Below, piece after piece: positions 607 through 28,058 of a stretch of 32,000 bases of DNA. The notes under the pieces are model-generated. The model had not been told where the DNA came from. It searched no databases and worked only from the letters and a program-made list of their open reading frames with translations. Source of the DNA: Methanosarcinales archaeon (GTDB taxonomy: Archaea > Halobacteriota > Methanosarcinia > Methanosarcinales > Methanocomedenaceae); contig JAUVLO010000004.1 in NCBI GenBank assembly GCA_030600695.1, positions 1 to 32,000 of the forward strand, given 5' to 3'. The stretch's first letter is position 1. Each line of letters opens with the position of its first letter. The position numbers and the translations under genes were made by a program.

Positions 607-651
607 TCCCAAATATAAAAGGGACACTGTATCATATTTCAGTTTTGTTCA

Positions 652-763
652 CGTATAGGAAATTATAAACGCATTTCGATATCGATATAGTTAATTTTTA
701 TTGGTCTCAATCAAATCTTTTGACAGGATTTACAGGATTGGAACGTATCCTGTCAATCCTGTC
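652..763 (+). repeat. E1 repeat: conserved ~70-nt flank with the tcgatatcga palindrome, plus an ACAGGAT-unit hairpin (722-763)
   Basis: gtataggaaattataaacgcatttcgatatcgatatag...tcaatcaaatcttttgacaggatttacaggat-tggaacgt-atcctgtcaatcctgtc. An inverted copy lies at 11333-11469. Confidence 0.8.
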
Positions 764-814
764 TAAAATTTCCAATTTATTGAGATATGGATTTCACGTT
801 GCATCGTCTGTGCA

Positions 815-980
815 TATTGAATAGTCGCCGCCGCCAACAGTTGAAATATATATTCTGTGTAATTTTTAAGACGCATAGTACACAGAGACACACAGAGCGT
901 TTTTTCCCATACTCTGCGTACTTCTGCGCACTCTGCGGTTAATATCGAATTGATTCCAGGCCCTATTGGTTCTTTCAATC
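815..980 (-). repeat. A-type repeat, diverged copy A0, with a CGCAGAG-unit hairpin (881-938)
   Basis: Shares tgaatagt...gccgccgcc..gttgaaatatatat...hairpin...ttctttcaatc with copies A and B, but the hairpin units differ (cacagag/ctctgcg). Confidence 0.65.
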
Positions 981-981
981 A

Positions 982-1050
982 CCCTGCCACCGCAGCCCGC
1001 AAGGGCGGCAGTGTGGCAGCCAGCCTTATGGATTCGTGCGAGTTTGGAAC
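982..1050 (+). repeat. F repeat copy 1 (GC-rich imperfect hairpin module)
   Basis: ccctgccaccgcagcccgcaagggcggcagtgtggcagccagccttatggattcg...ttggaac. The second copy is at 5627-5695. Confidence 0.75.
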
Positions 1051-1175
1051 CGCAGATAAACGCGGATGAACGCAGATATTATAGCTAAAATTTGATTATA
1101 TTTAAATTTACACTGCATAATTATAATTAAAACCCACAATCGCCGTTATCTGTGTTCATCTGTGTTCATCTGTGG
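1050..1175 (+). repeat. Inverted 28-nt stuttered arms (CGCAGAT units) flanking a 70-nt AT-rich spacer
   Basis: Arms are ccgcagataaacgcggatgaacgcagat (1050-1077) and atctgtgttcatctgtgttcatctgtgg (1148-1175). By hand there are 23 Watson-Crick pairs, 4 G:T pairs and 1 mismatch. Confidence 0.8.
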
Positions 1176-1243
1176 TTAATACTGAAATAAATATAGTTGG
1201 CGTCCTTTCTGCACTAACCCACTCCTAAACTGATGCCTTCGTA

Positions 1244-1439
1244 CGGGTGCCCATGCGCTGAGTGTGGGGCACGGGAGTGAATAGTAGAGTGTGCTGCCAG
1301 CAGCGGCTATGGCTGTGAAAATATATAATTTATGAAATACTGTACAGCAAAGCACGCAAAGTAAAGGGCACAACGTCTTTGCGAACTTCGCGCTCTTTGC
1401 AGTGAAACACTTAACGGCACCCTTCAATCTGCATGCCTC
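1244..1439 (-). repeat. A-type repeat copy A, with a GCAAAG-unit hairpin (1347-1400)
   Basis: Near-identical to 2254-2469: cgggtgcccatgcgctgagtgtggggcacgggagtgaat...gaaaatatataatttatgaaatactg...gtctttgcgaacttcgcgctctttgc...gcacccttcaatctgc. Confidence 0.85.
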
Positions 1440-1605
1440 GGTGGTTAATATTGAAATGATTGCCAGCCACAGTCCCATTATATGCTCTCACGCCCCCCTC
1501 CTGTGCTGGTGCCTGGATGCGGGGCATATGCGCTGGACGCGTAGATTGGGATTTAATAATAGTGGGATCCCCCGCGCTAAAGCGTGCGTTGATCAGTAAA
1601 AAAAG

Positions 1606-1863
1606 TCAATAGACGTTTCCACGAACTCCGATATCTTCAATAATTACTGTATTTTTATCACTCTCTATTCTATAGACGATTCTATACTTCCCAACGCGCA
1701 AACGAAACTTGCCCGCCAATTCCCCTTTTAACATTTTAATGTTCTTACCGGAAGCAGGTTTTTCCAGTAATGTTTCAATTGCACGATTAATTCTCGCTGT
1801 ATTTTTATCATCGAGTTTGTTATAGAATTTAACAACTCGATCGTGAAGAAGGATTTCATACAT
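1606..1863 (-). CDS. Type II toxin, RelE/ParE family
   Basis: 85 aa with ...KMLKGELAGKFRLRVGKYRIVYRIESDKNTVIIEDIGVRGNVY, the characteristic RelE/ParE C-terminal pattern. It overlaps the upstream small ORF by 8 nt. An oligo-T run follows the stop on the minus strand. Confidence 0.8.
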   Translation of the reverse strand: MYEILLHDRVVKFYNKLDDKNTARINRAIETLLEKPASGKNIKMLKGELAGKFRLRVGKYRIVYRIESDKNTVIIEDIGVRGNVY

Positions 1864-2101
1864 GGCGTTTCACTTTGTTCCATGAAGTGAATTCCTGCAT
1901 TTTACCCATCTCCCATGCCTGATCAGCAGTTCTAATATTTCGCATTGACTCTTCATCAGCAAGAATTTCAAGGGTAGCATCAAGTTCTTCTTTTTGTTCG
2001 AGATATTCGATAAAATCGAGAACTACTTTTAATCTATCAGGTGATAAGACATCCAACTTTTCAATTGCTTTTCTTTTATAATTAACTACATGAACTGCCA
2101 T
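1856..2101 (-). CDS. Putative antitoxin partner of the RelE-family toxin
   Basis: 81-aa ORF translationally coupled to the toxin by a 4-codon-scale overlap, in the usual antitoxin-first order. No family signature recognised by eye. Confidence 0.6.
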   Translation of the reverse strand: MAVHVVNYKRKAIEKLDVLSPDRLKVVLDFIEYLEQKEELDATLEILADEESMRNIRTADQAWEMGKMQEFTSWNKVKRHV

Positions 2102-2253
2102 TATCTTGCCTCCTGTTATAGAAACTGAATTAATTAATATTAATACTATGCAATAGGTTGCCTCATAATCTCATTAAAGTGAGAACTTTGCCACCAACTT
2201 CCATTATGTACGATATATCTGCCCGACCATAGACGGTCTGGTTTGCCTCCCTG

Positions 2254-2469
2254 CGGGTGCCCATGCGCTGAGTGTGGGGCACGGGAGTGAATTGTGGAAT
2301 GTGCTGCCGGCGGCGGCCATGGCTGTTGAAATATATAATTTATGAAATACTGCACCGCAAAGCACGCAAAGGACGCAAAGTTAAGGTCACAACGTCTTTG
2401 CGAACTTCGCGCTCTTTGCGGTGAAACAATCAACAGCACCCTTCAATCTGCGTGTATCTGCATGCCTCT
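2254..2469 (-). repeat. A-type repeat copy B, with a GCAAAG-unit hairpin (2353-2423)
   Basis: Direct-orientation copy of 1244-1439 on the other side of the relE cassette. The hairpin has 3 units per arm: caccgcaaagcacgcaaaggacgcaaag / ctttgcgaacttcgcgctctttgcggtg. Confidence 0.85.
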
Positions 2470-2776
2470 GCGTTTTATGCTACCCAGCCTTGGCCCGTTC
2501 CCCCCACTTCTCCACTCTCCCGCCGCCCGTCATTCTGTATTTGTCCACATCTCAAAACATATAGATCAAGCTTAAATAGATTTATATATAATTCATACAT
2601 ATGAGTATAATGATGATTGTGGGCGGGTACAATTTTTATAACTAACCCCCACTCCCAAACCCCCGCTCACAAATTCATCATTTGTGGAACTAATGAAGTG
2701 GTGTTTTTTTAAACCATGGATTGTTGTGATATTCCTGATTGCCAACTTTAGTAAACCAGATAATGTCTATGTTGCA

Positions 2777-3661
2777 CTACACATCAAGAGAATTTATCTG
2801 TTTTGCAGCCTCAGTGAACATCTGGTCTCCAAAGTTCTCAATGTTAGAAACAGGTTGACCAGCATGTACATCAACCATTATGAAATATTCATCCTTCACA
2901 GTTTCTCCGTGATAACAATAAAGGTCGTCACTGATCGAAGCTATGTAATAATTACTGGACATTCCGCCAATGGGAAGGAAAGATGAATCTGAAAGTATAT
3001 CCCAATATATGTGTAATCCGTTACTGCGGCTGGGTCTTATTTCTGCAATTTGCTGGACATAACCCTTCCACAGCCAAAATGTGACATTTCCTTTAATAAG
3101 AGGAATAATATTCCACTGAGAAGAATAATAATCCAGGACCTGGTTTGCAGCCTCAGGACTTTCCATTTTATAAACTAAATATTCCACTTCAAAATTAGTT
3201 GAAGTACCGTTGCTTAAATATAAAACACCGACTTTATCAACCACCTGTGATTCGAATTGCCAGTTAGTCTCATCATTCATGGAGTCCATTCTGGTCGTAT
3301 CTAATTGTACCCGCCTCATCCCACTGATATTATCAGGGAAAAACCGGGCAAATTCCGGTTTAAGAACAGGTTCAGGTATATTACCGGTAAATAATACAGG
3401 CTGGATGTCAGTACTTATACCAGGTTGTATACCAGGAGGTGGCGGGCCTGTAGGATAATCTGCCTGATTGGTTCCGCCGCCGGATAGCAGGTATGCGATC
3501 ACCAGTAATAATCCGGCAATGATAGCTATGTATGGTAGATTGTTGGCCGGTCCTTTACTGCTATCTGTCTTTGCTGTCTTTGGAATCTGCTCACTGTGGT
3601 TATTCCGGGCAGTATCTTCTGTTTTTTTAGTACTTCGTTTCTTTTTAGCCAAAAATATCAC
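2777..3661 (-). CDS. Hypothetical membrane-anchored protein: basic N-terminus, one TM helix, Pro/Gly linker, globular C-terminal domain
   Basis: 294-aa ORF with hydrophobic segment LPYIAIIAGLLLVIAYLL followed by PTGPPPPGIQPG. Composition looks coding. The overlapping + strand ORFs look like shadows. Confidence 0.6.
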   Translation of the reverse strand: MIFLAKKKRSTKKTEDTARNNHSEQIPKTAKTDSSKGPANNLPYIAIIAGLLLVIAYLLSGGGTNQADYPTGPPPPGIQPGISTDIQPVLFTGNIPEPVLKPEFARFFPDNISGMRRVQLDTTRMDSMNDETNWQFESQVVDKVGVLYLSNGTSTNFEVEYLVYKMESPEAANQVLDYYSSQWNIIPLIKGNVTFWLWKGYVQQIAEIRPSRSNGLHIYWDILSDSSFLPIGGMSSNYYIASISDDLYCYHGETVKDEYFIMVDVHAGQPVSNIENFGDQMFTEAAKQINSLDV

Positions 3662-3689
3662 TTTTTTTCATTTGATAACGACATCATAA

Positions 3690-4484
3690 TTACACATTTA
3701 TTAATAAGAGTTTTGTGACAGCGAATATCAGGTCACCATACAAAACAGCTACAAAGAACCCAAGTGTAATGGGTATCATGAACGGCAGGCCCGGAGTAAC
3801 CCATACCCGCCTGTCAATCAGGCCCTCGGCAGCGAATCCTTCAAGTTCTTTAACAGTTTCCTCGTCGATACTTGCCCCCCCGCGCCTGAACTTTGTATAA
3901 AATTCACCCTCAAGGAGATAACATTCTTCGATCAACTTGATATGTCTGCCCAGCAAATTTGAAATGTCTGTCTTAAACCCAACAAAGAGATACGCTGGCC
4001 GTTTCATGATCTCGCCTGGTTTTAAGGTGAACAGGTTATAGAAAAACAGGAACAAGGGTACCACTACGGTCAGCAGGACAGAATTCCCAAATACACTAAA
4101 AGCGAAAAGATCGATAAGGGGCACGCCATTCAATGGCATCAGCACTCCGAACAGTTCAATTGTTGGGTAAACGGGTATAATAATAGCCAGGACGATCAGG
4201 CTCTTGGCATCGGCTCCTCCAAAAGCACCGAACTGGAATAAGATATAGACAAATACGAATATTACACCCGCTGAAAACAAAAGCCTGACCAGGGCAGGTA
4301 TCCCACCGTTTATAATATCATATGTAACAAAAATGAGGGCACCTGCCAGCATTACTTTCCAAAGCTGGTTAGATACACGCCTTGTCAGGATATCCGTATA
4401 GCAGGAATACAGTAAAAATGGAGTACAATACAGTATTTTCAACAAGTCAATAAAAACCATTGTATCTACCATTTTATTTTTCAA
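3690..4484 (-). CDS. Archaeal type IV prepilin/preflagellin peptidase (A24 aspartyl peptidase family)
   Basis: Polytopic membrane protein. An FGAFGGADAK motif (GxGDxK-type catalytic Asp) and an upstream Asp-containing loop fit the FlaK/PibD/EppA family. Confidence 0.75.
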   Translation of the reverse strand: MKNKMVDTMVFIDLLKILYCTPFLLYSCYTDILTRRVSNQLWKVMLAGALIFVTYDIINGGIPALVRLLFSAGVIFVFVYILFQFGAFGGADAKSLIVLAIIIPVYPTIELFGVLMPLNGVPLIDLFAFSVFGNSVLLTVVVPLFLFFYNLFTLKPGEIMKRPAYLFVGFKTDISNLLGRHIKLIEECYLLEGEFYTKFRRGGASIDEETVKELEGFAAEGLIDRRVWVTPGLPFMIPITLGFFVAVLYGDLIFAVTKLLLINV

Positions 4485-4836
4485 TTATATCAATTATATC
4501 TATAATACGCATCAGTGGGTAATCCAGTGATTGGTCGTATTTTAGTCCAACTGTTGCCGTTGTGCCGCCAAAAGTGATCCTGGCCTCCACGTCCAGCATC
4601 CGGCCTTCCAGTTCGCAGTACCTGAACTTCTCACCGGTCCTGCTGGCGACCATGTCCCTGTCTATCGTTACCAATATTTTTTCAACATAGGGCTGCACTG
4701 ATATGCTTTCCTGTATGGCCTGCTCCAGGCTGTCTACAGTACTTATATTTACCGGAGCGCCTGTGAACTGGTGATACAGGGCACCCAATTTGATGCCTGC
4801 CTCAAATAATGCGTTGTCCCTTTCACTTATAACCAT
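4474..4836 (-). CDS. mptD: Archaeal dihydroneopterin aldolase MptD-like (methanopterin/folate branch)
   Basis: MVISERDNALFEAGIKLGALYHQFTGAPV... matches my memory of the PF04038/MptD signature. I chose the ATG at 4836 because the track extension to 4971 runs into a non-coding repeat. The gene overlaps the peptidase gene by 11 nt. Confidence 0.6.
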   Translation of the reverse strand: MVISERDNALFEAGIKLGALYHQFTGAPVNISTVDSLEQAIQESISVQPYVEKILVTIDRDMVASRTGEKFRYCELEGRMLDVEARITFGGTTATVGLKYDQSLDYPLMRIIDIIDIIEK

Positions 4837-4947
4837 GGTTAGCAACTTACAAGTGAAAATATAAACCATTTGCTGTTTAATACCAGGCAGTGACATGGAT
4901 GGGTATCCGGCAGTCCGGGGGTGCAAAGTGGATGTTATGCTGGTTAG

Positions 4948-5098
4948 CTGCCGGGTGCCCATCTCGCTCAACTCCGCCCCCGGCCCCCTTGTTCACGGCA
5001 TACAGGGCGGGCTGGCAGGCGTTTTTGTGGTGCCTTGTGTATGCATGGGTGTCAGTGCCCGGACCTCATATTCTACTGTAGAACGATGGGGATTCATG
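4948..5098 (+). repeat. C-type repeat copy C
   Basis: ctgccgggtgcccatctcgct...gggctggcaggcg...tgcatgggtgtcagtgcccggacctca...acgatgggg. The partner copy is at 5726-5868. Confidence 0.7.
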
Positions 5099-5165
5099 TT
5101 CTGTTGGTTGGTGGGGGGGCAGATGTCGCCATATTTATATCTAAAAACAACTAATTAATTGCAAG

Positions 5166-5375
5166 GTGAAAATATTGATTTTTAAGGTAGTTCTGGAATT
5201 AGCTGAAGAGGGTGGCTATGTAGTATATGTACCTTCTCTTCCCGGATGTATTTCTGAAGGTGATAGTAAAGAAGAAGCACTAGAGAACATCAAAGAGGCT
5301 ATAGAACTATATTTGGAACCAACCGAAAATCCTGTTTTAGCTTACAGTGCCGAACTCGCTGAAGTTGCTGTCTAG
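5166..5375 (+). CDS. hicB: HicB-family antitoxin
   Basis: 69 aa with ...EEGGYVVYVPSLPGCISEGDSKEEALENIKEAIELYLE, a classic HicB N-terminal fold signature. GTG start, TAG stop. Confidence 0.8.
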   Translation: MKILIFKVVLELAEEGGYVVYVPSLPGCISEGDSKEEALENIKEAIELYLEPTENPVLAYSAELAEVAV

Positions 5376-5388
5376 GCAGGTATGCCAA

Positions 5389-5613
5389 ATGAAGTTACCA
5401 GTCGTTTCAGGCGAGAAGGCAATTAAGGCATTTTTAAATGCTGGTTTTGTAAAAGTCAGGCAGCGTGGAAGCCATGTAAGATTGGAAAAGATTGAAGGTA
5501 ATGATATAATTAAACTTACAGTTCCATTACATAATCCAATGAAGAAAGGGACTCTGAGCAGATTAATTAAAGATGCTGGTTTAACAATCGATGAATTTGT
5601 TAATCTGTTGTGA
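5389..5613 (+). CDS. hicA: HicA-family mRNA interferase toxin
   Basis: MKLPVVSGEKAIKAFLNAGFVKVRQRGSHVRLEK... is a typical HicA. The ATG at 5389 is in frame with track ORF 5347..5613. Confidence 0.8.
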   Translation: MKLPVVSGEKAIKAFLNAGFVKVRQRGSHVRLEKIEGNDIIKLTVPLHNPMKKGTLSRLIKDAGLTIDEFVNLL

Positions 5614-5626
5614 TTTTATACCCTAC

Positions 5627-5695
5627 CCCTGCCACCGCAGCCCTTCAGGGGCAGCAGGTGGCAGCCAACCTTGTTGATTCGAATAAGCCTTGAAC
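5627..5695 (+). repeat. F repeat copy 2
   Basis: ccctgccaccgcagcccttcaggggcagcaggtggcagccaaccttgttgattcgaataagccttgaac. Confidence 0.75.
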
Positions 5696-5725
5696 TTATT
5701 CCGCCCCCTCTATTCTTCGGCTTTC

Positions 5726-5868
5726 CTGCCGCCCATCTCGCTGCGCCCTACCCTGGCGTTCATCTGGCATGCAGAACGGGCTGGCTGGCGCTTTGCTTTA
5801 ATAGTGTCTCGTGGATGCATGGGTGTCAGTGTCCGGACCTCACTCTACCGTGGGACGATGAGTCTTGG
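5726..5868 (+). repeat. C-type repeat copy D
   Basis: ctgccgcccatctcgct...gggctggctggcg...tgcatgggtgtcagtgtccggacctca...acgatgag. Same orientation as copy C, with several indels (roughly 70-75 percent similarity by eye). Confidence 0.7.
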
Positions 5869-5940
5869 TCTAAGAAGTTCCGCAGTACTGGCAAACCCAT
5901 AGCATATGGTCGGAAAATAAGAGTATAACAAAATATTAAG

Positions 5941-6012
5941 TGCACCGACCGGGATTCGAACCCGGGTAGTGGGCTTGGAAGGCCCAAGTCATAGCCGCTA
6001 GACCATCGGTGC
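5941..6012 (-). tRNA. tRNA-Gly (anticodon UCC), no encoded CCA
   Basis: The reverse complement reads GCACCGA-TG-GTCT..GAC-T-TGGGC-CTTCCAA-GCCCA-CTAC-CCGGG-TTCGAAT-CCCGG-TCGGTGC-A. This gives a 7-bp acceptor stem, 5-bp anticodon stem, TCC at positions 34-36, and a canonical T arm. Confidence 0.9.
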
Positions 6013-6195
6013 GCAAGGGAATTGTACTTCCTGTATAGTCTTATTCGATTTAATTGTTGCGGATGTTTACATTATTTCCCTGGAATTTTGCATTTGAAAG
6101 ATTATTTACATGCCGCCGCCAGACAATAACCTCCTGCTCCCCTTGATTTTTCAAATAATCGTTGAAATTGATCAAATCCAAATATCAATCAGGTG

Positions 6196-6543
6196 CTACA
6201 CCAGTTTCAACTTGCCCACGACCTTGTCCAGTTTCTCAACAGGTCCGGGCCCGATACCCAGTACAGTAACGGTCCCAGGTGGTATCTGGGTAAGTCCGGC
6301 ATCAGTGATAAGGGCAGTAGACAGCCCTTCCCTGCGTGCCGACTCCTTCAACAGAAATAGGTCCTGCAGCGTGCCGGTCTTAAGTACGACCTTCTTCTGC
6401 CCGTCCTTCATCCAGGAATCACGTTCCTTCTTATCAGCAAAATCAGAGGCGGTTACGGCTGCATGTGCCACCTGTACAGCCAGCTTGCCTTTTGAAAGTT
6501 TAAGGTCATCACGGGTTACGATACACTGCTTGTATTCAGTCAT
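6196..6543 (-). CDS. pth2: Archaeal-type peptidyl-tRNA hydrolase (Pth2)
   Basis: MTEYKQCIVTRDDLKLSKGKLAVQVAHAAV...KVVLK...ITDAG.T.I..GT.TVLGIGP is the PTH2 family pattern. I prefer the start at 6543. Confidence 0.85.
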   Translation of the reverse strand: MTEYKQCIVTRDDLKLSKGKLAVQVAHAAVTASDFADKKERDSWMKDGQKKVVLKTGTLQDLFLLKESARREGLSTALITDAGLTQIPPGTVTVLGIGPGPVEKLDKVVGKLKLV

Positions 6544-7279
6544 TGATGAGCATCCCATCCTTATCGAATTTCAATGAGTTCGTAGTTCGCTGGTGCCATT
6601 CTTCACCAAGCTTCAAGGCTTCATCCCTGTTGAAATCACCTATCTCCACATCCTCGTCAGTGAATCCGGATATGGACGACATAGGTATGTACAGTTTCTC
6701 AGCCCCGTGCTTGAACACAAGATTCCCGGCATCAATGGAAATAGTCTCACCGATCCTCTGCCCGTGCTGCACCACGAACTTGCAGAGTATGTCCTGTTTT
6801 GATATGGGTTTTTCCTCATCCTGCCCCTGGTCGGGTGGTTGGGATTGAGGAGCTCTTAGTGGTTCGGCAGGTTGGGGTTGAGGGGCTTTTATTGGTGCGG
6901 CAGGTTCACCTGGCACTTCTTTTTCGGCCTGCGCCTTTGATGGAACCGGATGGGGTATGGACATCGAGTGCCAGTCCAGATCGTCATGTTTGTGTTCCCA
7001 TTTGCTGCCCACCTGCCTGCTCTGTTTTGTTTGATTTTCATCCTTCCCCGGGCTACCGGGTGCTGCCTCTGCACCTACACTTTTCTGTTCAACCGCAGAA
7101 CCCTGGGCAGAATGCACATTCCCGGCAGCTACTACTGGCTTTTTGTCTTCCCCGGCAACTACCACCGGCTTCTTATCTTCACCGGTAGTTGCTACCTGCT
7201 TCTTATCTTTCCCGGCAGCACCGGAATCATCTGTCCCACATCGCCCTATTAGTTTGTTGAAAGTGTCTTTAAATCCCAT
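6536..7279 (-). CDS. Hypothetical protein with a disordered repeat-rich N-terminal two-thirds and a compact C-terminal domain
   Basis: 247 aa. Contains 10-aa tandem repeats GKDKKQVATT/GEDKKPVVVA/GEDKKPVVAA and a PQ-rich stretch. The C-terminal ~85 aa (KFVVQHGQRIGETISIDAGNLVFKHG...) looks globular. Lies in an apparent operon with pth2. Confidence 0.6.
   Translation of the reverse strand: MGFKDTFNKLIGRCGTDDSGAAGKDKKQVATTGEDKKPVVVAGEDKKPVVAAGNVHSAQGSAVEQKSVGAEAAPGSPGKDENQTKQSRQVGSKWEHKHDDLDWHSMSIPHPVPSKAQAEKEVPGEPAAPIKAPQPQPAEPLRAPQSQPPDQGQDEEKPISKQDILCKFVVQHGQRIGETISIDAGNLVFKHGAEKLYIPMSSISGFTDEDVEIGDFNRDEALKLGEEWHQRTTNSLKFDKDGMLIND
7121..7210. repeat. In-gene tandem repeat, 3 x 30 nt
   Basis: cccggcagctactactggctttttgtcttc / cccggcaactaccaccggcttcttatcttc / accggtagttgctacctgcttcttatcttt. 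These encode the 10-aa repeats of the 6536..7279 protein. Confidence 0.85.
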
Positions 7280-7288
7280 CCTTTATCC

Positions 7289-8437
7289 CTACCAGTGTAT
7301 TCGTTTCATGTATTTTTCATCCACACCAAGGAAATCAATGGCTGAAGCAATAATGGCATTAGTGAATATGTATGAGTTGATCTCAGAGATCGATAGACGC
7401 ATCTGGTTCATCTTTGTTGTTGTGATCTTACTGGGTGTCTTGTCGTGGAAGATGCCCATGTCTCCTTCTTCCACAGGTATGAAAATGATATTATCCTCAT
7501 ATCCCCATTCTTCCAGGAGTTCAACCATCCTGGAACTTTTATTTACAGTAATAGGGAACACGTCCACTCCTTTGCTGCGTGCCTTCATCATCCCTTCCAC
7601 GATCTCCCTGGTATTACCGCTTCCGCTGATGGGAATATATACGTCGCCCCTGACAAAACTGGGCGTGGTGGCATCGCCTTTAATGTAGACATGCTGGCCC
7701 AGGTGTGTCAAACGCATTCCAAAGGCTTTTGCCACGAACCCTGACCGTCCCACGCCATCCACTATGAAATGCCCCCTGCGGTTCAGCAGCTTTTCAATCC
7801 ATGAACGCAGGTATCCATCATCAATATCCCGGAGCAGCCTGGCATTCCTTAGATAGTGGTCTATCTGCTGGTAATATTGACTGACATCGCCGCTGTCCAG
7901 GACAGGCAGTATGCTGTTCAGCATAGTACACAGTTTTAGTTCGAACTCAGAACCCATGACTGCCAGTTCGCTGGGCTTTTCCAGTTTTATATCTTCAAGC
8001 AGGAAGACAAAACCGTTATGTGATTTTATTTTTTTATATGCAGGCGAGTCGGTCTTGGTAGTGATAAGTATCTCACTTGCACCCAGGCGGTGGGCATCTT
8101 CAAGATAGTTATTAACACTTTCAGTGCCTCCCGAGCCCGATGCAGATAATACCATGTTGGACCTGTCAGGGTCAAAGTAGCGGCGGATGGGGTCGTCAAG
8201 GGTGGCAGGGAAAAGCTGTTCATATTTCAATAACTGGTGGAGAAAATCATATAGGGCCAGTGCACTCCTGCCCTCACCGATACCGTATATGACCTTTTGT
8301 TTTGTATCGGCCTGGAAAATGAAGTTTCTCAGGACTTTTATCAGGCCGCCAATCTCTTCCTCAGGGATATGCTTGAGTTGTTCAAGAAATTGGAGCTGGA
8401 TGTCGATCGAATCATAGAATTTAGCAGTGGAAGTCAT
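7289..8437 (-). CDS. Tandem double SIS-domain protein (two 6-phospho-3-hexuloisomerase-like sugar-phosphate-binding modules)
   Basis: The N-terminal half has GIGEGRSA...VLSASGSGGTES. The C-terminal half has VDGVGRSGFVAKAFGMRLTHLG...IPISGSGNTREIV. Both are SIS/PHI-type motifs. Confidence 0.7.
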   Translation of the reverse strand: MTSTAKFYDSIDIQLQFLEQLKHIPEEEIGGLIKVLRNFIFQADTKQKVIYGIGEGRSALALYDFLHQLLKYEQLFPATLDDPIRRYFDPDRSNMVLSASGSGGTESVNNYLEDAHRLGASEILITTKTDSPAYKKIKSHNGFVFLLEDIKLEKPSELAVMGSEFELKLCTMLNSILPVLDSGDVSQYYQQIDHYLRNARLLRDIDDGYLRSWIEKLLNRRGHFIVDGVGRSGFVAKAFGMRLTHLGQHVYIKGDATTPSFVRGDVYIPISGSGNTREIVEGMMKARSKGVDVFPITVNKSSRMVELLEEWGYEDNIIFIPVEEGDMGIFHDKTPSKITTTKMNQMRLSISEINSYIFTNAIIASAIDFLGVDEKYMKRIHW

Positions 8438-8535
8438 GTCTTGTTCTTCACCGGATTATATTTTCATTCTGTATATAGTAGCGTCATAACATAATATAAT
8501 AATGTTTATAGGTGGTAAGACCACAGAGAAAAAAT

Positions 8536-9492
8536 ATGGATATTTCAGATCATCCAAAGGTGCGTCTCAGGGATTTTATTATTACCAGGGAAGGGTGGAT
8601 ATTCTCATCAGCCGATTACCACCACCCTGAAGGTGTCAGGGGCGTGCTGCGCTATGTACCTGACCCTGAAGGCGAGCGTACAGACGGCACCCGGAATTAC
8701 CGGAAATACGATTTTGACGAAGCATATGATTACATGGAGCTCCACAAGCCAGAGTGGGTGCAGGATGTCCACATCATACCATGGGACCAGGTCGAGCGGG
8801 TGTTGAGCCCCACGGACCGACTGGCAGGGATATGGCGCTCTGACCCAAGGATCGAAGAGATAACCAGGACCCTGCTGGAGGCTGGGATTCCCATGGACAG
8901 TATAGGAATAACAGGGTCATTCCTGCCCGGCCTGCAGATAAGTGTTTCCGACATTGATCTTGTGGTATATGGTCCCATGTGGTTCAGGGCCAGGGATATA
9001 ATAGCCAGGGCAAAGGACGATCCCCACAGCAGCATCGAGCACCTGGATGAGGGGATGTGGGAGCGTATCTACAATAAGCGAATTCCTGAGATCAGTTTTG
9101 AGGAGTTCAAACTCCATGAGATGAGAAAGGGTAACAGGGGAATGATTGGAGATACATATTTCGATCTGCTGTTTGTCAGGGACTGGGACCAGGTCAGTGA
9201 ACCAACGGGCAGGGGTGCGGACATGGGTCATGAGACCATAGAGGCGGTGGTGACAGATTCAGAACTGGCTTTTGACAGCCCTTCGGTCTATAAGGTGGAT
9301 CATCCCGTGATCGAGTATGTGCTATCCTACACCCATACCTATGCCGGGCAGGCACTGGCAGGCGAGACCATAGAGGCCAGGGGCATGGTAGAAGAGGTGA
9401 ATGGTCACAGGCGGCTGGTCGTGGGTACCAGCAGGGAACCAAAAGGTGAATGGATACGCTCGCTGACCCTGCTTGGGTCTTCCGGACAATAG
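8536..9492 (+). CDS. Predicted nucleotidyltransferase (Pol-beta superfamily fold)
   Basis: ITGSFLPGLQISVSDIDLVVYGP is a GS...DxD NTase signature. I prefer the ATG at 8536 within track ORF 8512..9492. Confidence 0.6.
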   Translation: MDISDHPKVRLRDFIITREGWIFSSADYHHPEGVRGVLRYVPDPEGERTDGTRNYRKYDFDEAYDYMELHKPEWVQDVHIIPWDQVERVLSPTDRLAGIWRSDPRIEEITRTLLEAGIPMDSIGITGSFLPGLQISVSDIDLVVYGPMWFRARDIIARAKDDPHSSIEHLDEGMWERIYNKRIPEISFEEFKLHEMRKGNRGMIGDTYFDLLFVRDWDQVSEPTGRGADMGHETIEAVVTDSELAFDSPSVYKVDHPVIEYVLSYTHTYAGQALAGETIEARGMVEEVNGHRRLVVGTSREPKGEWIRSLTLLGSSGQ

Positions 9493-9570
9493 TAGTATAC
9501 TGAACTGTATCCTCAAAAAGAAGTGACTTTTTAATTTATTCTGGATAAATGGATCGTGGCAAAAAAGATT

Positions 9571-9640
9571 CACCGCAGAGGACACAGAGAGGCGCAGAGA
9601 TGTGTTGTTTTTCTCTGTGTGCCTTTTTGCTCTATGCGGT
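9571..9640 (+). repeat. Decayed CGCAGAG-unit stuttered hairpin followed by an ATATATATTT box (A-type module in + sense)
   Basis: caccgcagaggacacagagaggcgcagag-atgtgttgttttt-ctctgtgtgcctttttgctctatgcggt, then ...gtgatatatattttatcc about 60 nt downstream. Confidence 0.6.
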
Positions 9641-9766
9641 TTTTTGAATAGTCCCAGTAAATAATAAAAAGTCTCGTAATTCATGGCAACAGTGATATAT
9701 ATTTTATCCACTGCCGAAATTTTCCGAGTCCTAAAGAATCGACCCGGCATCCTTTCATTTTAATAA

Positions 9767-9994
9767 CATGACTGTGACATCACAGCAGACACAATCCTTA
9801 CTATCGTACCCGCCACCGCAGGTTCGCTCATAATGGTCTCGCTGGTGGTGCTACTGCAGCAACTGATCTACCATCTCCCACCCGCACTGGTGCTGGTTCT
9901 TTCGGTCGGGGTGGGTCCGGTATCGTATTCCGTGTTCATCTGGTTGACGCAGAAAGAAGAGATAGGGGAGATCAAGCGGTTGATTAGAGGCTGA
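9767..9994 (+). pseudogene. C-terminal remnant of a Wzx/MOP-type polysaccharide flippase
   Basis: The frame opens after TAA at 9764-66 and reads ...AGSLIMVSLVVLLQQLIYHLPPALVLVLSVGVGPVSYSVFIWLTQKEEIGEIKRLIRG*. Two terminal TM helices plus a charged tail are typical of flippase C-termini. There is no upstream body. Confidence 0.4.
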
Positions 9995-10221
9995 ACTTGA
10001 GCTAAGAGATGTTACCCAAACCGACGCACCAACCGCGTGCGGTCCACCTGCATCAAACAGAACATGCGAGACACCAATCTAACGAGAATCTGGATTGTTG
10101 TTACCACCCTTGGCCTTGGGTTGCTTGACAGAAAAGATTTGTGACAGGTTATGAGCAAATTACTGGATTATATGATAATGCCGTATAAGGGAATTTCTTT
10201 TTGAATTCGATGTGGGATGAG

Positions 10222-10827
10222 TTAGTATTCAAGCATGACTTTTGCTTTTATTTGAGCTACATCTTGTTCTATCATTGAAATCCTCTCATCAAAATGAGAC
10301 CTAAAATCATCTTTAGTGGAGCGGATTTCGGATGTTATTTCTATTCTGTTTTGATCGATTTTACCACTAAGATTATCTCCAAGATGATCGATCTTACCAC
10401 CAAGATAATCGATCTTACCACCAAGATTATCTCCAAGATAATCGATCTTACCACCAACTCCATCGATTTTTTGGCTGAGATTTGAGTTCATTTCTCTCAT
10501 ATATCTCACTGCTGCATCCATTCTTTCGTAAGTTGCTGTGGTCAGGTCTTCTTCTCTAATAACATCAAATGTTCTATACTCACCAGTTGGCTTTTTATAA
10601 ACCACGTCAATTTTTTCTACGCGTATAGGGTACTGAGTAATATTAATTTTTTCAAGCAATTCTTTGATATCGTCTTCTTTCCCTTCTGAGATAATCTGCA
10701 CTGTCCCGTCATCAAGATTTTTAACATATCCATTAAGATTCAGATTAAAAGCGATCTCATCAATGAAATCTCTGAAACCTGCTTTCTGAACTCTACCGTA
10801 TACTATGATCTCTGCACGTTTTTCCAT
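10222..10827 (-). CDS. Acylphosphatase-like domain fused to a 7/11-residue tandem-repeat and coiled-coil C-terminal region
   Basis: The N-terminus AEIIVYGRVQKAGFRDFIDEIAFNLNLNGYVKNLDDGTVQIISEG is the acylphosphatase signature. The C-terminus holds repeats GVGGKID/YLGDNLGGKID/YLGGKID/HLGDNLSGKID. Confidence 0.75.
   Translation of the reverse strand: MEKRAEIIVYGRVQKAGFRDFIDEIAFNLNLNGYVKNLDDGTVQIISEGKEDDIKELLEKINITQYPIRVEKIDVVYKKPTGEYRTFDVIREEDLTTATYERMDAAVRYMREMNSNLSQKIDGVGGKIDYLGDNLGGKIDYLGGKIDHLGDNLSGKIDQNRIEITSEIRSTKDDFRSHFDERISMIEQDVAQIKAKVMLEY
10354..10470. repeat. In-gene tandem repeat with alternating 33-nt and 21-nt units
   Basis: atcgattttaccactaagattatctccaagatg / atcgatcttaccaccaagata / atcgatcttaccaccaagattatctccaagata / atcgatcttaccaccaactcc. 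Confidence 0.9.
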
Positions 10828-10926
10828 ACCAAACCTATTTTCTTAAAAGAATATAAACGTTGTTCTCTGTTTGTTTTTGGCCTCACACATGAAAATTAAG
10901 TATATGGAGACAAATGGCTGCCAGCT

Positions 10927-11145
10927 GTGGCAGTGCTTCAGGTGCTCTGCCTCTACGGACTGAGCAGTGCATACCTGAAAACCACAGAAAACCTCTATCT
11001 CGCAGCCGGACAGCCCAAGATCATGACAAAGATCAACCTTTTGCAGCTTATCTTAATGGCAGTACTGATCTATCCCTTAACCCTCAGATACGGCATCCCC
11101 GGAATAGGAATAGCAGCGGCAGTACCGCCCGCGCTGGTACTTTAG
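10927..11145 (+). pseudogene. Internal fragment of a Wzx/MOP-type flippase
   Basis: ...LYLAAGQPKIMTKINLLQLILMAVLIYPLTLRYGIPGIGIAAAVPPALVL* resembles the penultimate TM pair of flippases. It has no N-terminal body and ends at TAG, after which plausible hydrophobic sequence continues. Confidence 0.35.
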
Positions 11146-11332
11146 ATCGGCCTGGGTGCGGTAAGTCAACAGACTGTTGTTATTGTAAATACACTGTGGT
11201 ATATTTAGGCATTCCTAAGTATATAGTTTGTGAAAGATTTACAAGGCTTTTATTGCGAACAATGAATAACTCTTTATACTCAAATTATTCTGGCAAATGG
11301 GAGGATTTTCGTGGTGACTTTATGGACCTGAT

Positions 11333-11469
11333 TTACAGGATGCACAGGATGCACAGGATGAGGATGTCAACCAATATCCTGTAAATCCCGTAAATCCTGT
11401 CTGAAGATTTGATTGAATTTAAGAAAATTACTTATATCGATATCGAAATGCGTTTATACTTTCCTATAC
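11333..11469 (-). repeat. E1 repeat, inverted copy, with an ACAGGAT-unit hairpin (11335-11401)
   Basis: The reverse complement reads tgtataggaaagtataaacgcatttcgatatcgatataagtaattttc...tcaatcaaatcttcagacaggatttacgggatttacaggat... Confidence 0.8.
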
Positions 11470-11676
11470 ATTAAATAAAATTATAAATAAATGAATTCTT
11501 GAGATTTGCAGCTATTCCGCAATCAGGCAATTTTCTTAAAAACCATTGACCTTCTATAAAATTAGCACTCAAAATGTTCTTTAGAGACAACATTCATCCA
11601 GGCAAGTAGTCACTCGTTGACGATTATAATTGTCCGGATGCGTTTTGAACACAAAAATCAAGAAAAACTGGCTAAC

Positions 11677-13625: not shown

Positions 13626-14102
13626 CTATAAAAGATCTAACAAATCATCCACAGTAATTATATCAACATTAATTAGTTCATAAACTCGTTCTTTAACGTT
13701 AAGAAGTGATTTCACATCCATAGTAACAAGCGGTATTGCATAATGATGTGCAAGTGCGACTATAGGTGCATCTTTTGGCTCTATTCTAAGTGCTTAGGCC
13801 AGTGCTATGTTTTCTTCCCTCCCTTTCACTTCTCTTAATACGGTTTTATCAAAGTCCAGTGGTGTGAATGTCGTTTTTACATAAGGTTCTCTAAATAAAG
13901 ACCAAATTGCAGTTTGGAGCAGATTGATATCCTTTCCGCTTTTGTGCCCTTCAAAAATGACATTATCACTAATTTCTTTTGCCAGATATGCAGAAATTAT
14001 TGGCTTGACATCTCCATTAAATATTTTTTCTAAAATATAGGTACATTTAGCGTCAGTTCTTAGAAATGCATGGATCCAGACACATGAATCTATTACAATC
14101 AT
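13626..14102 (-). pseudogene. vapC: VapC-type PIN-domain toxin interrupted by an in-frame TAA (13794-13796)
   Basis: Track ORF 13794..14102 (MIVIDSCVWI...) stops at TAA. The same frame continues for 55 codons: ALRIEPKDAPIVALAHHYAIPLVTMDVKSLL...DLL*. That segment carries the third and fourth conserved PIN acidic positions. Confidence 0.7.
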
Positions 14103-14470
14103 GCAGTTTCCTGCAACTCTTTATAGGCTTTTGCATATTTACTTTCTACTTCATTTTTCGTAATCTGTATAGATCTATCAATGGATTCTTTTGTATTTTC
14201 AGATCCAAGAGAGGATAGAATTTTCAGTGCTTCACTGGTTTTCATGGGTTTTTTCCATGCATTGAGCATGATTTTTTTCGTGTCCAGCGTTTCTTTGAAA
14301 AGATCAGATTTTAGATTATAGATGCTTAAGTCTTCTAAATAAGACAGGATTGCTTTTTTGACAAAATTCTCTCTGCTCTTTGTGGATTTTGATTGTATCG
14401 TTCTATCAATCTTGTGGGCTAAAAATTCGCCGATGTTAACTTTCGCTGCAGTTTCTGACATCCATATCAC
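14099..14470 (-). CDS. Putative VapB-type antitoxin (possible ribbon-helix-helix N-terminus)
   Basis: 123-aa ORF overlapping the PIN gene start by 4 nt. ...SRENFVKKAILSYLEDL resembles CopG/RHH helices. Confidence 0.55.
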   Translation of the reverse strand: MIWMSETAAKVNIGEFLAHKIDRTIQSKSTKSRENFVKKAILSYLEDLSIYNLKSDLFKETLDTKKIMLNAWKKPMKTSEALKILSSLGSENTKESIDRSIQITKNEVESKYAKAYKELQETA

Positions 14471-19705: not shown

Positions 19706-19745
19706 TAGTATTTACTAGTATTTATTAGTATTTACTAGTATTTAA
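19706..19745. repeat. Tandem repeat, 4 x 10 nt
   Basis: tagtatttac tagtatttat tagtatttac tagtatttaa, about 95 nt downstream of the orphan gene. Confidence 0.85.
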
Positions 19746-24147: not shown

Positions 24148-24267
24148 CCATCACTGGCACTATATAGTCGTTCTAAACCATCACTGGTACCATATAGTCA
24201 TTCCCAACCACTACTGGTACTGTAATAGTCGTTCTAAACCATCACTGGTACTGCAATAGTTATTATC
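24148..24267. repeat. Tandem repeat, 4 x 30-31 nt, abutting the stop codon of the KaiC-like gene
   Basis: ccatcactggcactatatagtcgttctaaa / ccatcactggtaccatatagtcattcccaa / ccactactggtactgtaatagtcgttctaaa / ccatcactggtactgcaatagttattatc. Confidence 0.9.
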
Positions 24268-25033
24268 AGAATACTGTATAGACCTCTTCGTGCGGATGCA
24301 CAATTACCCCAGTTGTGGTAATTTCATAGGGATGGATCTTCTTGCTGTGGTCAGAGCCGCGCATCTTAAATATTTCAAGGCTGCGCACCCTTACATTTTC
24401 CATCCTCTTGTAATACAGGGCAATAGTCCCCTCGGTCACGAAGTTCTCAACTCCGAAACGACTTGGATGATCATCATCCACAACTTCGGAGGTCATCATT
24501 GAAGTCAGGCCCAGTATTTCCAGGGTGGTGGACAGTTTTAACAGTTCCACACGTATCTTGGCCGGGTCCTGTAGATAGAATCCAATAGATGTGGTGGAAT
24601 CTACTACTGCCCGTTTGGCATCGATCTCTTCCTGGATCATTATGATCTGGTCCATCATGGAACGCATGTCAAAGGGTCTCACGTCAACGTATTTTTCCTG
24701 TGATGGAATACCGATCTTGGTAGACGCCGCATCAATAATGGCAAGTTTCCCCTCATCCTCCAGTTTCTTCAGGTCCCAGCCGAATACTTTTGCATTGTCC
24801 CTGATGTGCTCAGGGCGCTCCTCAGTTGCTACAATAATGCCGTTCTCATTGTATTTGGTGATGCCGTTGTAAATGAATTGAAGCGCAAGAATGGATTTTC
24901 CAGCCCCTGAAGTTCCTGATATCAAGTATGAGTGGTCCCTTAACAGGCCGCCTTCGCAAAGCTCATCAAAACCTTCTATCCCGGTTGGAACGCGGGACAA
25001 TTCATCCTTAACATCGTTTGTATTTCCGTTCAT
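24266..25033 (-). CDS. Single-domain KaiC/RadA-like RecA-superfamily ATPase
   Basis: PTGIEGFDELCEGGLLRDHSYLISGTSGAGKSILALQFIYNG with Walker A and Walker B (AVVDS). 255 aa. Confidence 0.85.
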   Translation of the reverse strand: MNGNTNDVKDELSRVPTGIEGFDELCEGGLLRDHSYLISGTSGAGKSILALQFIYNGITKYNENGIIVATEERPEHIRDNAKVFGWDLKKLEDEGKLAIIDAASTKIGIPSQEKYVDVRPFDMRSMMDQIIMIQEEIDAKRAVVDSTTSIGFYLQDPAKIRVELLKLSTTLEILGLTSMMTSEVVDDDHPSRFGVENFVTEGTIALYYKRMENVRVRSLEIFKMRGSDHSKKIHPYEITTTGVIVHPHEEVYTVF

Positions 25034-25322: not shown

Positions 25323-25451
25323 ATCTCACGGATTTATGCCAACGCTAACCGAAATAATTTCAAATCACTGCTGAACAGTGCCTAAAAAGAATTGGGAAAT
25401 AAGATTGTGCCTGCTAACATTTATATCGTATAATATCAATTTTTGTACCAT

Positions 25452-27369: not shown

Positions 27370-27417
27370 ATATTTGCGGCACAGTTCCAAAATCCAGTGA
27401 TATCAACAATTATATTA

Positions 27418-27627
27418 GACGCAGATTAACGCTGATTAACGCAGATGCAGTATCCACTTTAAATCTAAGGGTAATTTAAAAATTATTAGACAGGATTAAC
27501 AGGATCGACAGGATATACCGCAACGCAACATCCTGTAAATTCTGTAAATCCGGTCAAAATACCATGCTTTTTGAAGTGGATACCAGATGCAACCTTAAAT
27601 CAGCGTAAATCTGCGTGAATCAGCGTC
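27418..27627 (+). repeat. Nested stuttered hairpins: outer CGCAGAT/CGCTGAT arms enclosing an inner ACAGGAT hairpin (27489-27555)
   Basis: Outer arms are gacgcagattaacgctgattaacgcagat and aaatcagcgtaaatctgcgtgaatcagcgtc. The inner hairpin is gacaggattaacaggatcgacaggatat-accgcaacgcaac-atcctgtaaattctgtaaatccggtc. Confidence 0.8.
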
Positions 27628-27688
27628 TTGAAAATAACTGGAAAATGGGACAGTGTCGATATTTGCAAGGAAAAGGAAGTAAAATATA

Positions 27689-27994: not shown

Positions 27995-28058
27995 CAGTTG
28001 CCCACATATTCCAACGTTACCTGCATATTTCAACAGGTATCTGCATATTCCAACAGTT
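27995..28058. repeat. Tandem repeat, about 3 x 19-20 nt, starting at the first base after the tfs stop codon
   Basis: cagttgcccacatattccaa / cgttacctgcatatttcaa / caggtatctgcatattccaa / cagtt. Confidence 0.8.

Follow-up and report, generated by a model that had tools for sequence, protein, structure and literature searches.

Phased-heptamer hairpins shared by archaea and bacteria recur beside genes of the GxxExxY nuclease family

What are the hairpins with stuttered arms that lie between the genes of a Methanosarcinales archaeon, and is it their folding or their sequence that is conserved? The question arises from the first 32,000 nucleotides (nt) of contig JAUVLO010000004.1 (assembly GCA_030600695.1, Methanocomedenaceae; GC content about 43%), hereafter the window, in which a first-pass annotation had listed nine hairpins whose arms are tandems of heptamer-like units and had read them as elements that fold as RNA or single-stranded DNA. 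We found that they are members of a family of intergenic palindromes, made of phased heptamers, that occurs in both domains, varies by insertion and deletion and forms nested copies, and that the same arms recurrently bracket or adjoin a gene for a GxxExxY protein, a PD-(D/E)XK nuclease family of about 125 amino acids (aa; PF13366/TIGR04256). On balance, we favour the explanation that the gene-less stuttered hairpins are relatives of a GxxExxY-nuclease element, in the manner of repetitive extragenic palindromic (REP) sequences or miniature transposable elements with inverted repeats (MITEs). The heptamers would then be binding sites of the nuclease and the gene-less hairpins non-autonomous derivatives, the window copies among them, because all nine are gene-less.

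The units fall into two motif families. Family 1 is ACAGGAT at a 9-nt pitch. Family 2 is one degenerate heptamer, CRCRRAK, which covers the window units CGCAGAT, CGCTGAT, CGCGGAT, CGCAGAG, CACAGAG and CGCAAAG and whose outermost unit is extended into a foot, (A/C)ACC...GGT(T/G). Each arm holds 2-4 units at a pitch of 9-10 nt, and the two arms usually stand 8-60 nt apart. The nine hairpins are listed here with folding values and, where two z scores are given, one for each strand.

722-763, ACAGGAT hairpin with 2+2 units at a 9-nt pitch and an 8-nt loop; fold -15.0 (plus strand) and -16.1 (minus strand), z = -6.9/-7.6.
881-938, CRCRRAK hairpin inside segment 843-1317; left arm CACAGAG x2, right arm CTCTGCG x3, foot ...GCGGTT; z = -1.7/-2.5.
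1050-1175, CRCRRAK hairpin; left arm AACCGCAGAT/ACGCGGAT/ACGCAGAT, right arm ATCTGTG x3 + GTT, AT-rich loop of ~60 nt; 1045-1180 folds at -23.0 on the plus vs -16.3 on the minus strand.
1347-1400, CGCAAAG hairpin with 2+3 units, within repeat module B (~1200-1480); z = -0.45/-2.3.
2353-2423, CGCAAAG hairpin with 3+3 units and foot CACCGC...GCGGTG, in module C (~2215-2500); fold -22.2 (plus) and -24.9 (minus), z = -5.1/-5.7.
9571-9640, CRCRRAK hairpin; left arm CACCGCAGAG/CACAGAG/CGCAGAG, right arm CTCTGTG ... CTCTATGCGGT, then a T-run; fold -14.8 (plus) and -11.8 (minus).
11335-11401, ACAGGAT hairpin with 3+3 units; z = -3.2/-3.9.
27418-27627, three-layer nested palindrome with outer CGCWGAT arms of 3+3 units at a 10-nt pitch; the nested region 27410-27635 (226 nt) folds at -46.1 kcal/mol, z = -7.9.
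27489-27555, inner ACAGGAT hairpin of that palindrome, 3+3 units; z = -5.1/-4.2.

All nine are present at these positions, and the stuttered hairpins of the window are confirmed as real and non-random. Tandem Repeats Finder (TRF) recovered the tandem arms of 9-10 nt at 911-937, 1148-1174, 2356-2380, 9574-9600, 11335-11360, 11376-11397, 27414-27446, 27485-27514 and 27596-27626. A strict scan, which required a heptamer repeated at 8-11 nt pitch and its reverse complement repeated no more than 220 nt away with at most 2 mismatches, matched five hairpins (720, 2356, 11334, 27419 and 27490) and gave 0 matches in each of 20 second-order Markov shuffles. Folded as single-stranded DNA, seven hairpins exceed dinucleotide shuffles in stability by a wide margin, with z from -3.2 to -7.6 (-4.7 to -7.6 on the better strand for 722, 1050, 2353, 9571 and 27489); 881-938 and 1347-1400 are thermodynamically marginal and identifiable by unit architecture alone. 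The shared foot ACCGCA that the first-pass annotation had pointed out is seen at 1050, 2353 and 9571, as well as at 938 in minus-strand orientation, and it recurs in other phyla. Its observation that different copies carry different units is borne out across the window, and our results support its grouping of the hairpins as one non-random family of extragenic palindromes of the REP or MITE kind.

Both motif families extend far beyond the window. The exact pattern ACAGGATNNACAGGAT-N5-35-ATCCTGT occurs at more than 118 loci in GTDB species genomes, with about 8 expected by chance on a rough estimate. Its hosts span at least 12 bacterial phyla (among them Acidobacteriota, Planctomycetota, Verrucomicrobiota, Chloroflexota, Nitrospirota, Desulfobacterota, Gemmatimonadota, Bacteroidota, Pseudomonadota and Chlamydiota) together with Methanoperedens and Methanosarcinaceae, and include as isolates Gemmata algarum, three Spirosoma species, Thiobaca trueperi and Thioalkalivibrio denitrificans. 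The pattern is also found in a dozen Methanoperedens/Methanosarcinales genomes and in 28 viral contigs. For CRCRRAK, 1.11 Mb of sequence contained 54 left and 53 right arrays vs 3 and 10 in block shuffles (5-18x), and CRCRRAK units with the ACC..GGT foot were found in six phyla: Blastocatellia, Pseudomonadota, Nitrospirota, Sumerlaeota, Planctomycetota and Methanoperedens nitroreducens. The two families meet in nested copies, in which an ACAGGAT hairpin sits within the loop of a CRCRRAK hairpin; this was read directly at three other loci (L009, L039 and L073) and at window 27418-27627, and the loop lengths of two more (L040 and L151) match the same arrangement. The literature searched contained no description of these stuttered hairpins; TIGRFAM/InterPro curator notes, which may mention the repeats, lay outside that search.

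The connection to a protein came from a search for arms separated by more than a loop, and for long-range arm pairs enclosing a transposase. It returned only pairs of complete hairpins, a palindromic contig (L134) and one cassette. In this cassette, from a Pyrinomonadaceae genome (L026, 2744-3262), four CGCGGAT units on each side bracket a 136-aa open reading frame (ORF) whose product is a GxxExxY protein (TIGR04256, 4.6e-41; PF13366 PDDEXK_3, 9e-42). When GxxExxY homologues at least 40% identical to a query were sampled, stuttered arrays lay within ~100 nt of the ORF ends in 17 of 17 independent contexts. These came from Acidobacteriota (three sites), Fusobacteriota, Gemmatirosa, Persicobacter, Treponema, Bernardetia, Prevotella, Sphingomonas (fabD-GxxExxY-fabG), Bacteroides (after radA), an HsdR-YgjP site, a seven-copy genome and four viral contigs. 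The seven-copy genome (GCA_017880035.1) carries identical GxxExxY genes, each inside kilobase-long hairpin arrays of tandem alternating CACAGAT/CACGGAT and ATCTGTG/ATCTGCG arms, at which the contigs end. A Bacteroidales gene is followed by a tandem array of 90.5-nt (ATCAGCG)3...(CGCAGAT)3 modules, present in 9 vs 12 copies between samples, and in an Acidobacteria clade the final codons and stop of the gene, AAT CCG TGA, double as a right-arm unit. In Rudanella (L099), an additional GxxExxY gene fragment adjoins an ACGCGGA hairpin. The gene has the same orientation as both neighbours in all six annotated cases. In the fetched loci, which were not scanned directly for transposase or recombinase families, no further ORF was conspicuous as lying between arrays. 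The palindromic contig of the same search output, a 4298-bp IMG/VR entry, appears over its whole length to be an inverted duplication, nearly perfect, with an ACAGGAT hairpin at the centre; it is probably an assembly fold-back artefact, the alternative being a real hairpin-ended molecule.

The arms beside GxxExxY genes include every CRCRRAK subtype of the window, and window hairpins 881, 1050, 1347, 2353, 9571 and 27418 share heptamer arms (8-10 nt pitch) and the ACC..GGT foot with the GxxExxY arms of L182, L192, L204, L224 and L225. The arms in Bacteroides finegoldii (L204) read CACCACAGAG-GA-CGCAGAG-GA-CACGGAG ... CTCTGTG x3 + GTG, and the left arm of the window's 9571 hairpin, CACCGCAGAG-GA-CACAGAG-AG-GCGCAGAG, is by eye closely like the arm upstream of the GxxExxY gene there; CGCAGAG/CACAGAG units with a CACC foot lie beside GxxExxY in L204 and L202. 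The arms of 1050-1175 are near-identical to those of a Methanoperedens nitroreducens copy (L086) and to the GxxExxY-adjacent arms in L182 and L192, whose ACGCGGATGAACGCGGAT matches window 1062-1081; the CGCAGAT/CGCGGAT type is present in L182, L192 and L224. The CGCAGAT/ATCAGCG units of L224 and of the arrays next to the Bacteroidales GxxExxY gene match those of window 27418, and AACCGCAAAAG...CGCGGTT in L225 (CGCAAAG-like, with an AACC..GGTT foot) matches window 2353. The ACAGGAT type is tied to GxxExxY only via nesting, shared architecture and one degenerate case (L223), in which a CAGGAT/ACAAGAT set lies beside the gene.

Residues G27, E30, Y33, D69, E79 and K81 are invariant among the GxxExxY homologues, which retain an intact catalytic D...ExK. 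An AlphaFold model (predicted local distance difference test score 88.6) has a minimal PD-(D/E)XK fold; its structural neighbours, all of them weak, are Cas4 SSO0001, a Spirosoma restriction-endonuclease-like protein, lambda exonuclease and Hjc. There was no sequence match in the PDB, and PADLOC and PHROGs gave weak Cas4-like matches only, with no defence-system or phage-family assignment; no homologue was found in the INPHARED phage collection and none was confirmed in a first scan of viral-contig proteins. The family is very large, with at least 8000 candidates per homologue search, and is mentioned only in passing in the literature searched.

The hairpins are intergenic, often 10-80 nt from gene ends, and no neighbour gene recurs: among 733 clustered ORFs within 3 kb of ACAGGAT hairpins, no family was present at more than 6 loci. 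The elements vary between strains in presence, site and array length and insert into each other's loops, and the best reading of this behaviour is that it is REP- or MITE-like. The contigs related to the window derive from Methanoperedens-type populations. Two of them, L004 and L005, encode an identical ParE protein and share ~96% DNA identity with the window, yet lack 646-774 (a hairpin with its 75-nt flank) and 843-1317 (hairpins 881 and 1050). They fuse window ~645 directly to ~775, with imperfect ~10-bp direct repeats, ATTTCAGTT / ATTTCCAATTT, at the junctions. This junction, the sole readable one, places the imperfect repeat at 635-645 and 766-776, a possible target duplication. A metagenome scan with the SIS-domain gene found related strains with synteny confined to window 6118-9519, in which one hairpin site is comparable. 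In five contigs (L153, L160, L161, L162 and L175), wholly different DNA begins ~25-30 nt after the stop of the 8512-9492 orthologue (window 9519-9523), and the region 3' of this gene looks like a rearrangement hot spot. The further elements of the window are the following.

646-774, insertion of 129 nt with an ACAGGAT hairpin at its right end; missing from L004 and L005.
1425-1443, degenerate orphan right arm (ATCTGCA, CTCGGTG, then GGTTAATATTGAAAT), homologous to 2446-2473 (repeat D3).
1606-1863 and 1856-2101, minus strand, ParE toxin (Pfam ParE_toxin, 5.6e-10) and its antitoxin.
2446-2473, orphan right-arm array, absent from the first-pass list; ATCTGCG / ATCTGCA / CTCTGCG, TRF period 10, 2.8 copies.
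9525-9676, composite palindromic element of ~150 nt with outer arms GACTTTTTAATTTATTCTGG / CCAGTAAATAATAAAAAGTC and a stuttered hairpin at its centre.
11335-11488, inverted second copy of the 646-774 element; hairpin 11335-11401 plus a ~90-nt flank.
27450-27583, middle layer of the nested palindrome, a separate small inverted-repeat element, GTATCCACTT...AAGTGGATAC.

The ParE pair is bracketed by direct-repeat modules B and C of ~250 nt (1234-1435 vs 2244-2454, 90-91% identical), and both modules contain a CGCAAAG hairpin as well as an orphan ATCTGCR arm. The foot of the 1347 hairpin reads TACAGC...GCAGTG in the window and CACCGC...GCGGTG in the L004 copy. The window's ParE protein is also encoded on five short metagenome contigs, which break within the module B/C repeats. 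A parallel exists in Methanoperedens (L094), where repeats of 193 nt with 99% identity and ACAGGAT hairpins bracket a putative PIN-type toxin-antitoxin pair, as read from ORF translations. At 843-852, 1318-1327 and 2332-2341 there is an archaeal TATA-like box, GAAATATATA; because it stands 22-30 nt upstream of the hairpin 5' foot, the copies in modules A, B and C might be transcribed from their own promoter. The segment missing from L004 and L005 that holds hairpins 881 and 1050 also contains a GC-rich simple hairpin, CTGCCACCGCAGCCCGCAAGGGCGGCAGTGTGGCAG (985-1020), with an ACCGCA foot and no stutter.

Window 634-739 and 11384-11488 are 82-83% identical. The inverted copies of ~130-150 nt, 634-774 and 11335-11488 (flank palindrome CGCATTTCGATATCGATAT), lie 10.6 kb apart and enclose the genes 775-11334; the pair could be a composite unit or an inversion substrate. 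Some 200 nt upstream of the second copy, 10914-11150 encodes a truncated remnant of a membrane protein: the C-terminal end (…LYLAAGQPKIMTKINLLQLILMAVLIYPLTLRYGIPGIGIAAAVPPALVL*) is present, the N-terminal part is missing, and it looks like a flippase or polysaccharide-biosynthesis protein. Copies of the 9525-9676 element stand at other sites in related genomes (80% identity in L159, 75% in L154). The middle layer of the nested palindrome recurs as a gene-less element (GTATCCACTTNAAATCTAAGGGTAA...TGCTTTTTGAAGTGGATAC) that lacks the inner hairpin in L161, L168 and L173, 3' of the 8512-9492 orthologue.

The window is archaeal and Methanoperedens-like. Its genes include those for a proteasome-activating AAA ATPase (25443-26672), for transcription factor S (27689-27994), for a prepilin/preflagellin peptidase of archaeal type II and for an archaeal-type dihydroneopterin aldolase (Pfam DHNA), besides a LarC-type nickel-insertion protein (Pfam Ni_insertion), a TYW2/Trm5 methyltransferase and a pyridoxal-dependent decarboxylase. 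Exact-protein look-ups with the transcription factor S gene and the acylphosphatase-like gene returned no record. Directly after the transcription factor S stop lies a 20-nt tandem repeat, CATATTCCAACAGGTACCTG (2.7 copies, 28005-28056), which contains ATCTGCA/ACCTGCA units. Other repeats are in frame: 21- and 54-nt units in the C-terminal part of an acylphosphatase-domain protein (10222-10827; region 10354-10457), and 33- and 30-nt units in a DUF5749 protein (6536-7279; regions 6837-6906 and 7121-7219). A 30-nt repeat (3.5 copies, 24148-24252) stands just 3' of a KaiC-like gene (24266-25033), and a 10-nt repeat, TAGTATTTAC (3.9 copies, 19706-19744), in an intergenic stretch of 30% GC. A PIN_3-domain ORF (13794-14102) adjoins a 123-aa ORF (14099-14470) with a weak Phage_integrase match (E = 0.007), which may be a decayed integrase fragment.

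The next question is whether pairing or sequence is under constraint. The first-pass annotation had seen covariation at the scale of whole stems, and homologous copies do switch whole stems: in the 9525-9676 element the three units of both arms are all CACAGAG/CTCTGTG in L154 and all CGCAGAG/CTCTGCG in L159, the window copy being a hybrid. Arm-wise homogenisation or recombination between subfamilies nevertheless explains these switches as well as selection for pairing does. The strand asymmetry of G:T pairs, its other argument for folding, is real in single hairpins (1045-1180 folds better on the plus strand, 875-945 and 1340-1405 on the minus strand) but not family-wide. Its directions are opposed within the window (plus at 1050, minus at 881); across 164 ACAGGAT hairpins, 13 G:T vs 25 A:C mismatches fell on the sense strand of the co-directional gene, so that no strand bias appears in a wide set, and hairpins with at least 2 such mismatches were mixed as often as uniform. 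Wobble differences fall at the purine-degenerate positions of CRCRRAK and are common to all units of one arm; the four G:T pairs counted in the 1050 hairpin are therefore not four independent events.

Across 164 ACAGGAT hairpins, complementarity between the 2-nt spacers of opposite arms reaches 37.8% of positions vs 33.3 +/- 2.4% in shuffles, so that each stem consists of short 7-bp helices with 2x2 loops between them. In most of the 12 modules of the Bacteroidales array, both arms carry A on the same strand at the middle of the unit, which gives an A.A mismatch, and the arms of window 27418 have the same type of centre. No compensatory drift accompanies the conservation of the heptamers across phyla. 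The evidence that had been taken to speak against duplex protein sites thus points the other way: the constraint looks to be on motif sequence, not pairing, and the arms look like arrays of protein-recognition sites, because the heptamers are conserved, spacers and degenerate positions need not pair, and the G:T strand is inconsistent. In the Rfam search, a tRNA at 5941-6012 was the sole window match at the gathering threshold, and a permissive search gave only sub-threshold look-alikes of miRNA precursors.

If GxxExxY proteins are the partners, each arm would be an array of 2-4 recognition motifs of 7 nt that follow one another at roughly one helical turn (9-10 bp), and the second array would be the inverse of the first. 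In the most likely mechanism, the nuclease would bind the heptamers, and several protomers could load on the phased arrays, by analogy with IS607 TnpA and the phased 9-bp repeats to which it binds. The element may then be propagated when inverted arrays, or an extruded cruciform, are cleaved and repaired, and gene-less hairpins would be mobilised in trans, as REPs are by a REPtron or MITEs by an insertion sequence. Effects on transcripts, as a 3'-end hairpin or terminator, would be secondary.

Several observations weigh against this explanation. Neither the window nor the fetched Methanoperedens/Methanosarcinales loci (an estimated few hundred kb of 1.47 Mb searched) contain a GxxExxY gene, and gene-bearing versions were found only in taxa other than the window's archaeon; the second and third homologue searches returned Acidobacteriota and Bacteroidota clades only, archaeal GxxExxY genes being outside the sample. 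No full GxxExxY gene lies in 8-kb windows around 146 ACAGGAT loci, which yielded only the Rudanella fragment. The geometry of gene and arms is heterogeneous: in 7 contexts inverted arms enclose the gene, in 7 it adjoins complete hairpins or arrays, and in 3 it has direct arrays on both sides. Four distant viral homologues (at most 37% identity, giant-virus bins included) have no arms. The possible ~10-bp duplication at 646-774 would fit a DDE-type MITE for that composite element. Finally, where gene-bearing elements have inverted arms, pairing is better on the coding strand in 5 of 6, a finding that still allows an RNA-level role.

Such a role is the core of one competing account, in which the host selects the hairpins for their structure as RNA or single-stranded DNA (as stabilisers of 3' ends, as terminators or as processing sites), pairing alone matters and the GxxExxY link is incidental. 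The flanking genes of ACAGGAT hairpins are consistent with it (convergent in 27 cases, tandem in 45, divergent in 14), as are the T-run after the 9571 hairpin, the co-orientation and sense-strand pairing of the GxxExxY elements, and the concerted A:T to G:C switch between 9525-9676 copies, which preserves pairing. We nonetheless consider it unlikely: the same heptamers recur across phyla and domains without compensated drift, the spacers are not complementary, the A.A mismatch is systematic, sense-strand G:U is not in excess, no Rfam family matches, and 2 of the 9 hairpins fold no better than shuffles on one strand. The hairpins could also be MITEs of a conventional transposon with multiple transposase-binding repeats, of the IS607 serine or the DDE kind, with GxxExxY a frequent passenger. 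The ends of IS607, a family of both bacteria and archaea, do carry four 9-bp phased repeats that bind TnpA (PMC6188088), and the possible target duplication would suit such an origin. GG termini are not evident, however, the 733 neighbouring ORFs contain no family at more than 6 loci, and GxxExxY, in its 17 contexts, is the sole recurrent bracketed gene (transposases and recombinases were not scanned directly); this origin appears improbable to us.

Far less probable still are single-strand recombination sites of the REP/RAYT, IS200/IS605 or attC type, which the first-pass annotation had proposed. The hairpins resemble these as high-copy extragenic palindromes that vary from strain to strain and cluster around a toxin-antitoxin cassette flanked by similar repeats, and GGTTAATA follows three of them. 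By published criteria, however, a REP is a palindrome of 20-40 bp with a conserved GTAG (or CGTC) tag at one end (PMC3733652); our hairpin ends read GACAGGAT..., (A/C)ACCGCA... and ...GCGGT(T/G), with this tag in none. No HUH partner (RAYT/TnpA-Y1) was seen: the ~38 window ORFs scanned gave no HUH match, no neighbour family recurs, and the bracketed gene encodes a PD-(D/E)XK protein, although HUH genes were not scanned directly around the hairpins. For IS200/IS605 ends, no TnpA-Y1 or TnpB ORFs were seen between or beside the arms, and the 8-60 nt between the arms have no coding capacity. As for attC, AACC...GGTT pairs at the base of some copies, but the R' candidate GTTAATA, present in three copies, violates GTTRRRY, and the arm units are direct repeats and not inverted R/L boxes. 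The neighbours are ordinary housekeeping genes of normal size in all orientations, not cassettes; neither a cassette array nor IntI was seen in the window, whose only integrase trace is the weak 123-aa fragment, 3-13 kb from the nearest hairpins. The integron reading was dropped after inspection of these neighbours. ACAGGAT was also considered as a CsrA-binding site (ACA-GGA), a -35 promoter element (TTGACA), a LexA box or a Shine-Dalgarno/anti-Shine-Dalgarno sequence, and these candidates were dropped because ACAGGAT is found paired, is present in archaea and represents just one unit type among several.

The link to the GxxExxY nuclease that we favour can be taken further, and we do so tentatively. 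The elements may constitute a previously undescribed class of mobile element of Bacteria, Archaea and some viruses, in which the ~125-aa GxxExxY protein is the sole protein, inverted phased-heptamer arrays are the ends and the hairpins are the offspring, with a mechanism distinct from DDE, HUH, serine and tyrosine enzymes. It could involve, for example, the loading of several protomers on the arrays and cleavage at an extruded cruciform or loop; cleavage there would explain why elements nest in each other's loops. If the nuclease link is true, it would provide a function and a DNA partner for a very large orphan family, and would add a system like REP/REPtron on a different nuclease fold. It would also explain intergenic repeats that fragment metagenome assemblies of Acidobacteriota, the Planctomycetes-Verrucomicrobia-Chlamydiae (PVC) group, Chloroflexota, Bacteroidota and methane-oxidising archaea. 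That archaea and more than 10 bacterial phyla share the 7-nt motifs points to very wide horizontal spread or a strongly conserved recognition code, and phased-heptamer arrays might serve as a programmable scaffold for multi-site DNA binding.

Among known systems, the REP/REPtron pair is the closest precedent in organisation (PMC3733652). Like it, the hairpins are short, high-copy extragenic palindromes near gene ends that form clusters and arrays and vary between strains, and they have a gene-bearing version with one small nuclease gene flanked by such repeats. Unlike REPs, which are single, tagged palindromes and largely lineage-specific, they have tagless arms made of tandem heptamer arrays, with the same motifs across many phyla and archaea, and the partner is a PD-(D/E)XK GxxExxY protein, not the HUH Y1 transposase of a REPtron. 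IS607 TnpA is the closest mechanistic precedent for phased repeats that would load several protomers (PMC6188088). The ends of IS607 share the helically phased direct repeats of ~9 bp, inverted between ends; in our elements there are 2-4 units per arm at 9-10 nt, the arms usually lie within a short loop of each other, the termini are TTNG/ACC instead of GG, and a serine recombinase or TnpB was not seen recurring beside them, serine recombinases not having been scanned directly.

The small selfish insertions in 23S rRNA genes (the intervening sequences of Coxiella, with their S23p protein) also carry one short ORF between inverted arms that pair into a long stem (PMC4990558). They differ in protein family and in their location in rRNA. 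Their arms are not known to be stuttered. Free-standing homing endonuclease genes resemble the gene-bearing versions as small nuclease genes wedged, co-oriented, between conserved host genes (fabD-GxxExxY-fabG, radA-GxxExxY); we know of no phased repeat arrays or abundant gene-less derivatives among them. MITEs and foldback elements share with the hairpins a non-coding length of 40-230 nt, multiple copies, inverted arms, insertion polymorphism, nesting and assembly breaks. The hairpins differ from them in arms that are internally repetitive, in a putative autonomous partner that is a 125-aa nuclease and not a known transposase, and in that no clear terminal inverted repeat with a fixed target duplication is established from the one readable junction. 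REP/RAYT, IS200/IS605, attC and IS607 thus each miss at least one defining feature, and the elements are best filed as being of the REP/MITE kind, tied to an uncharacterised nuclease.

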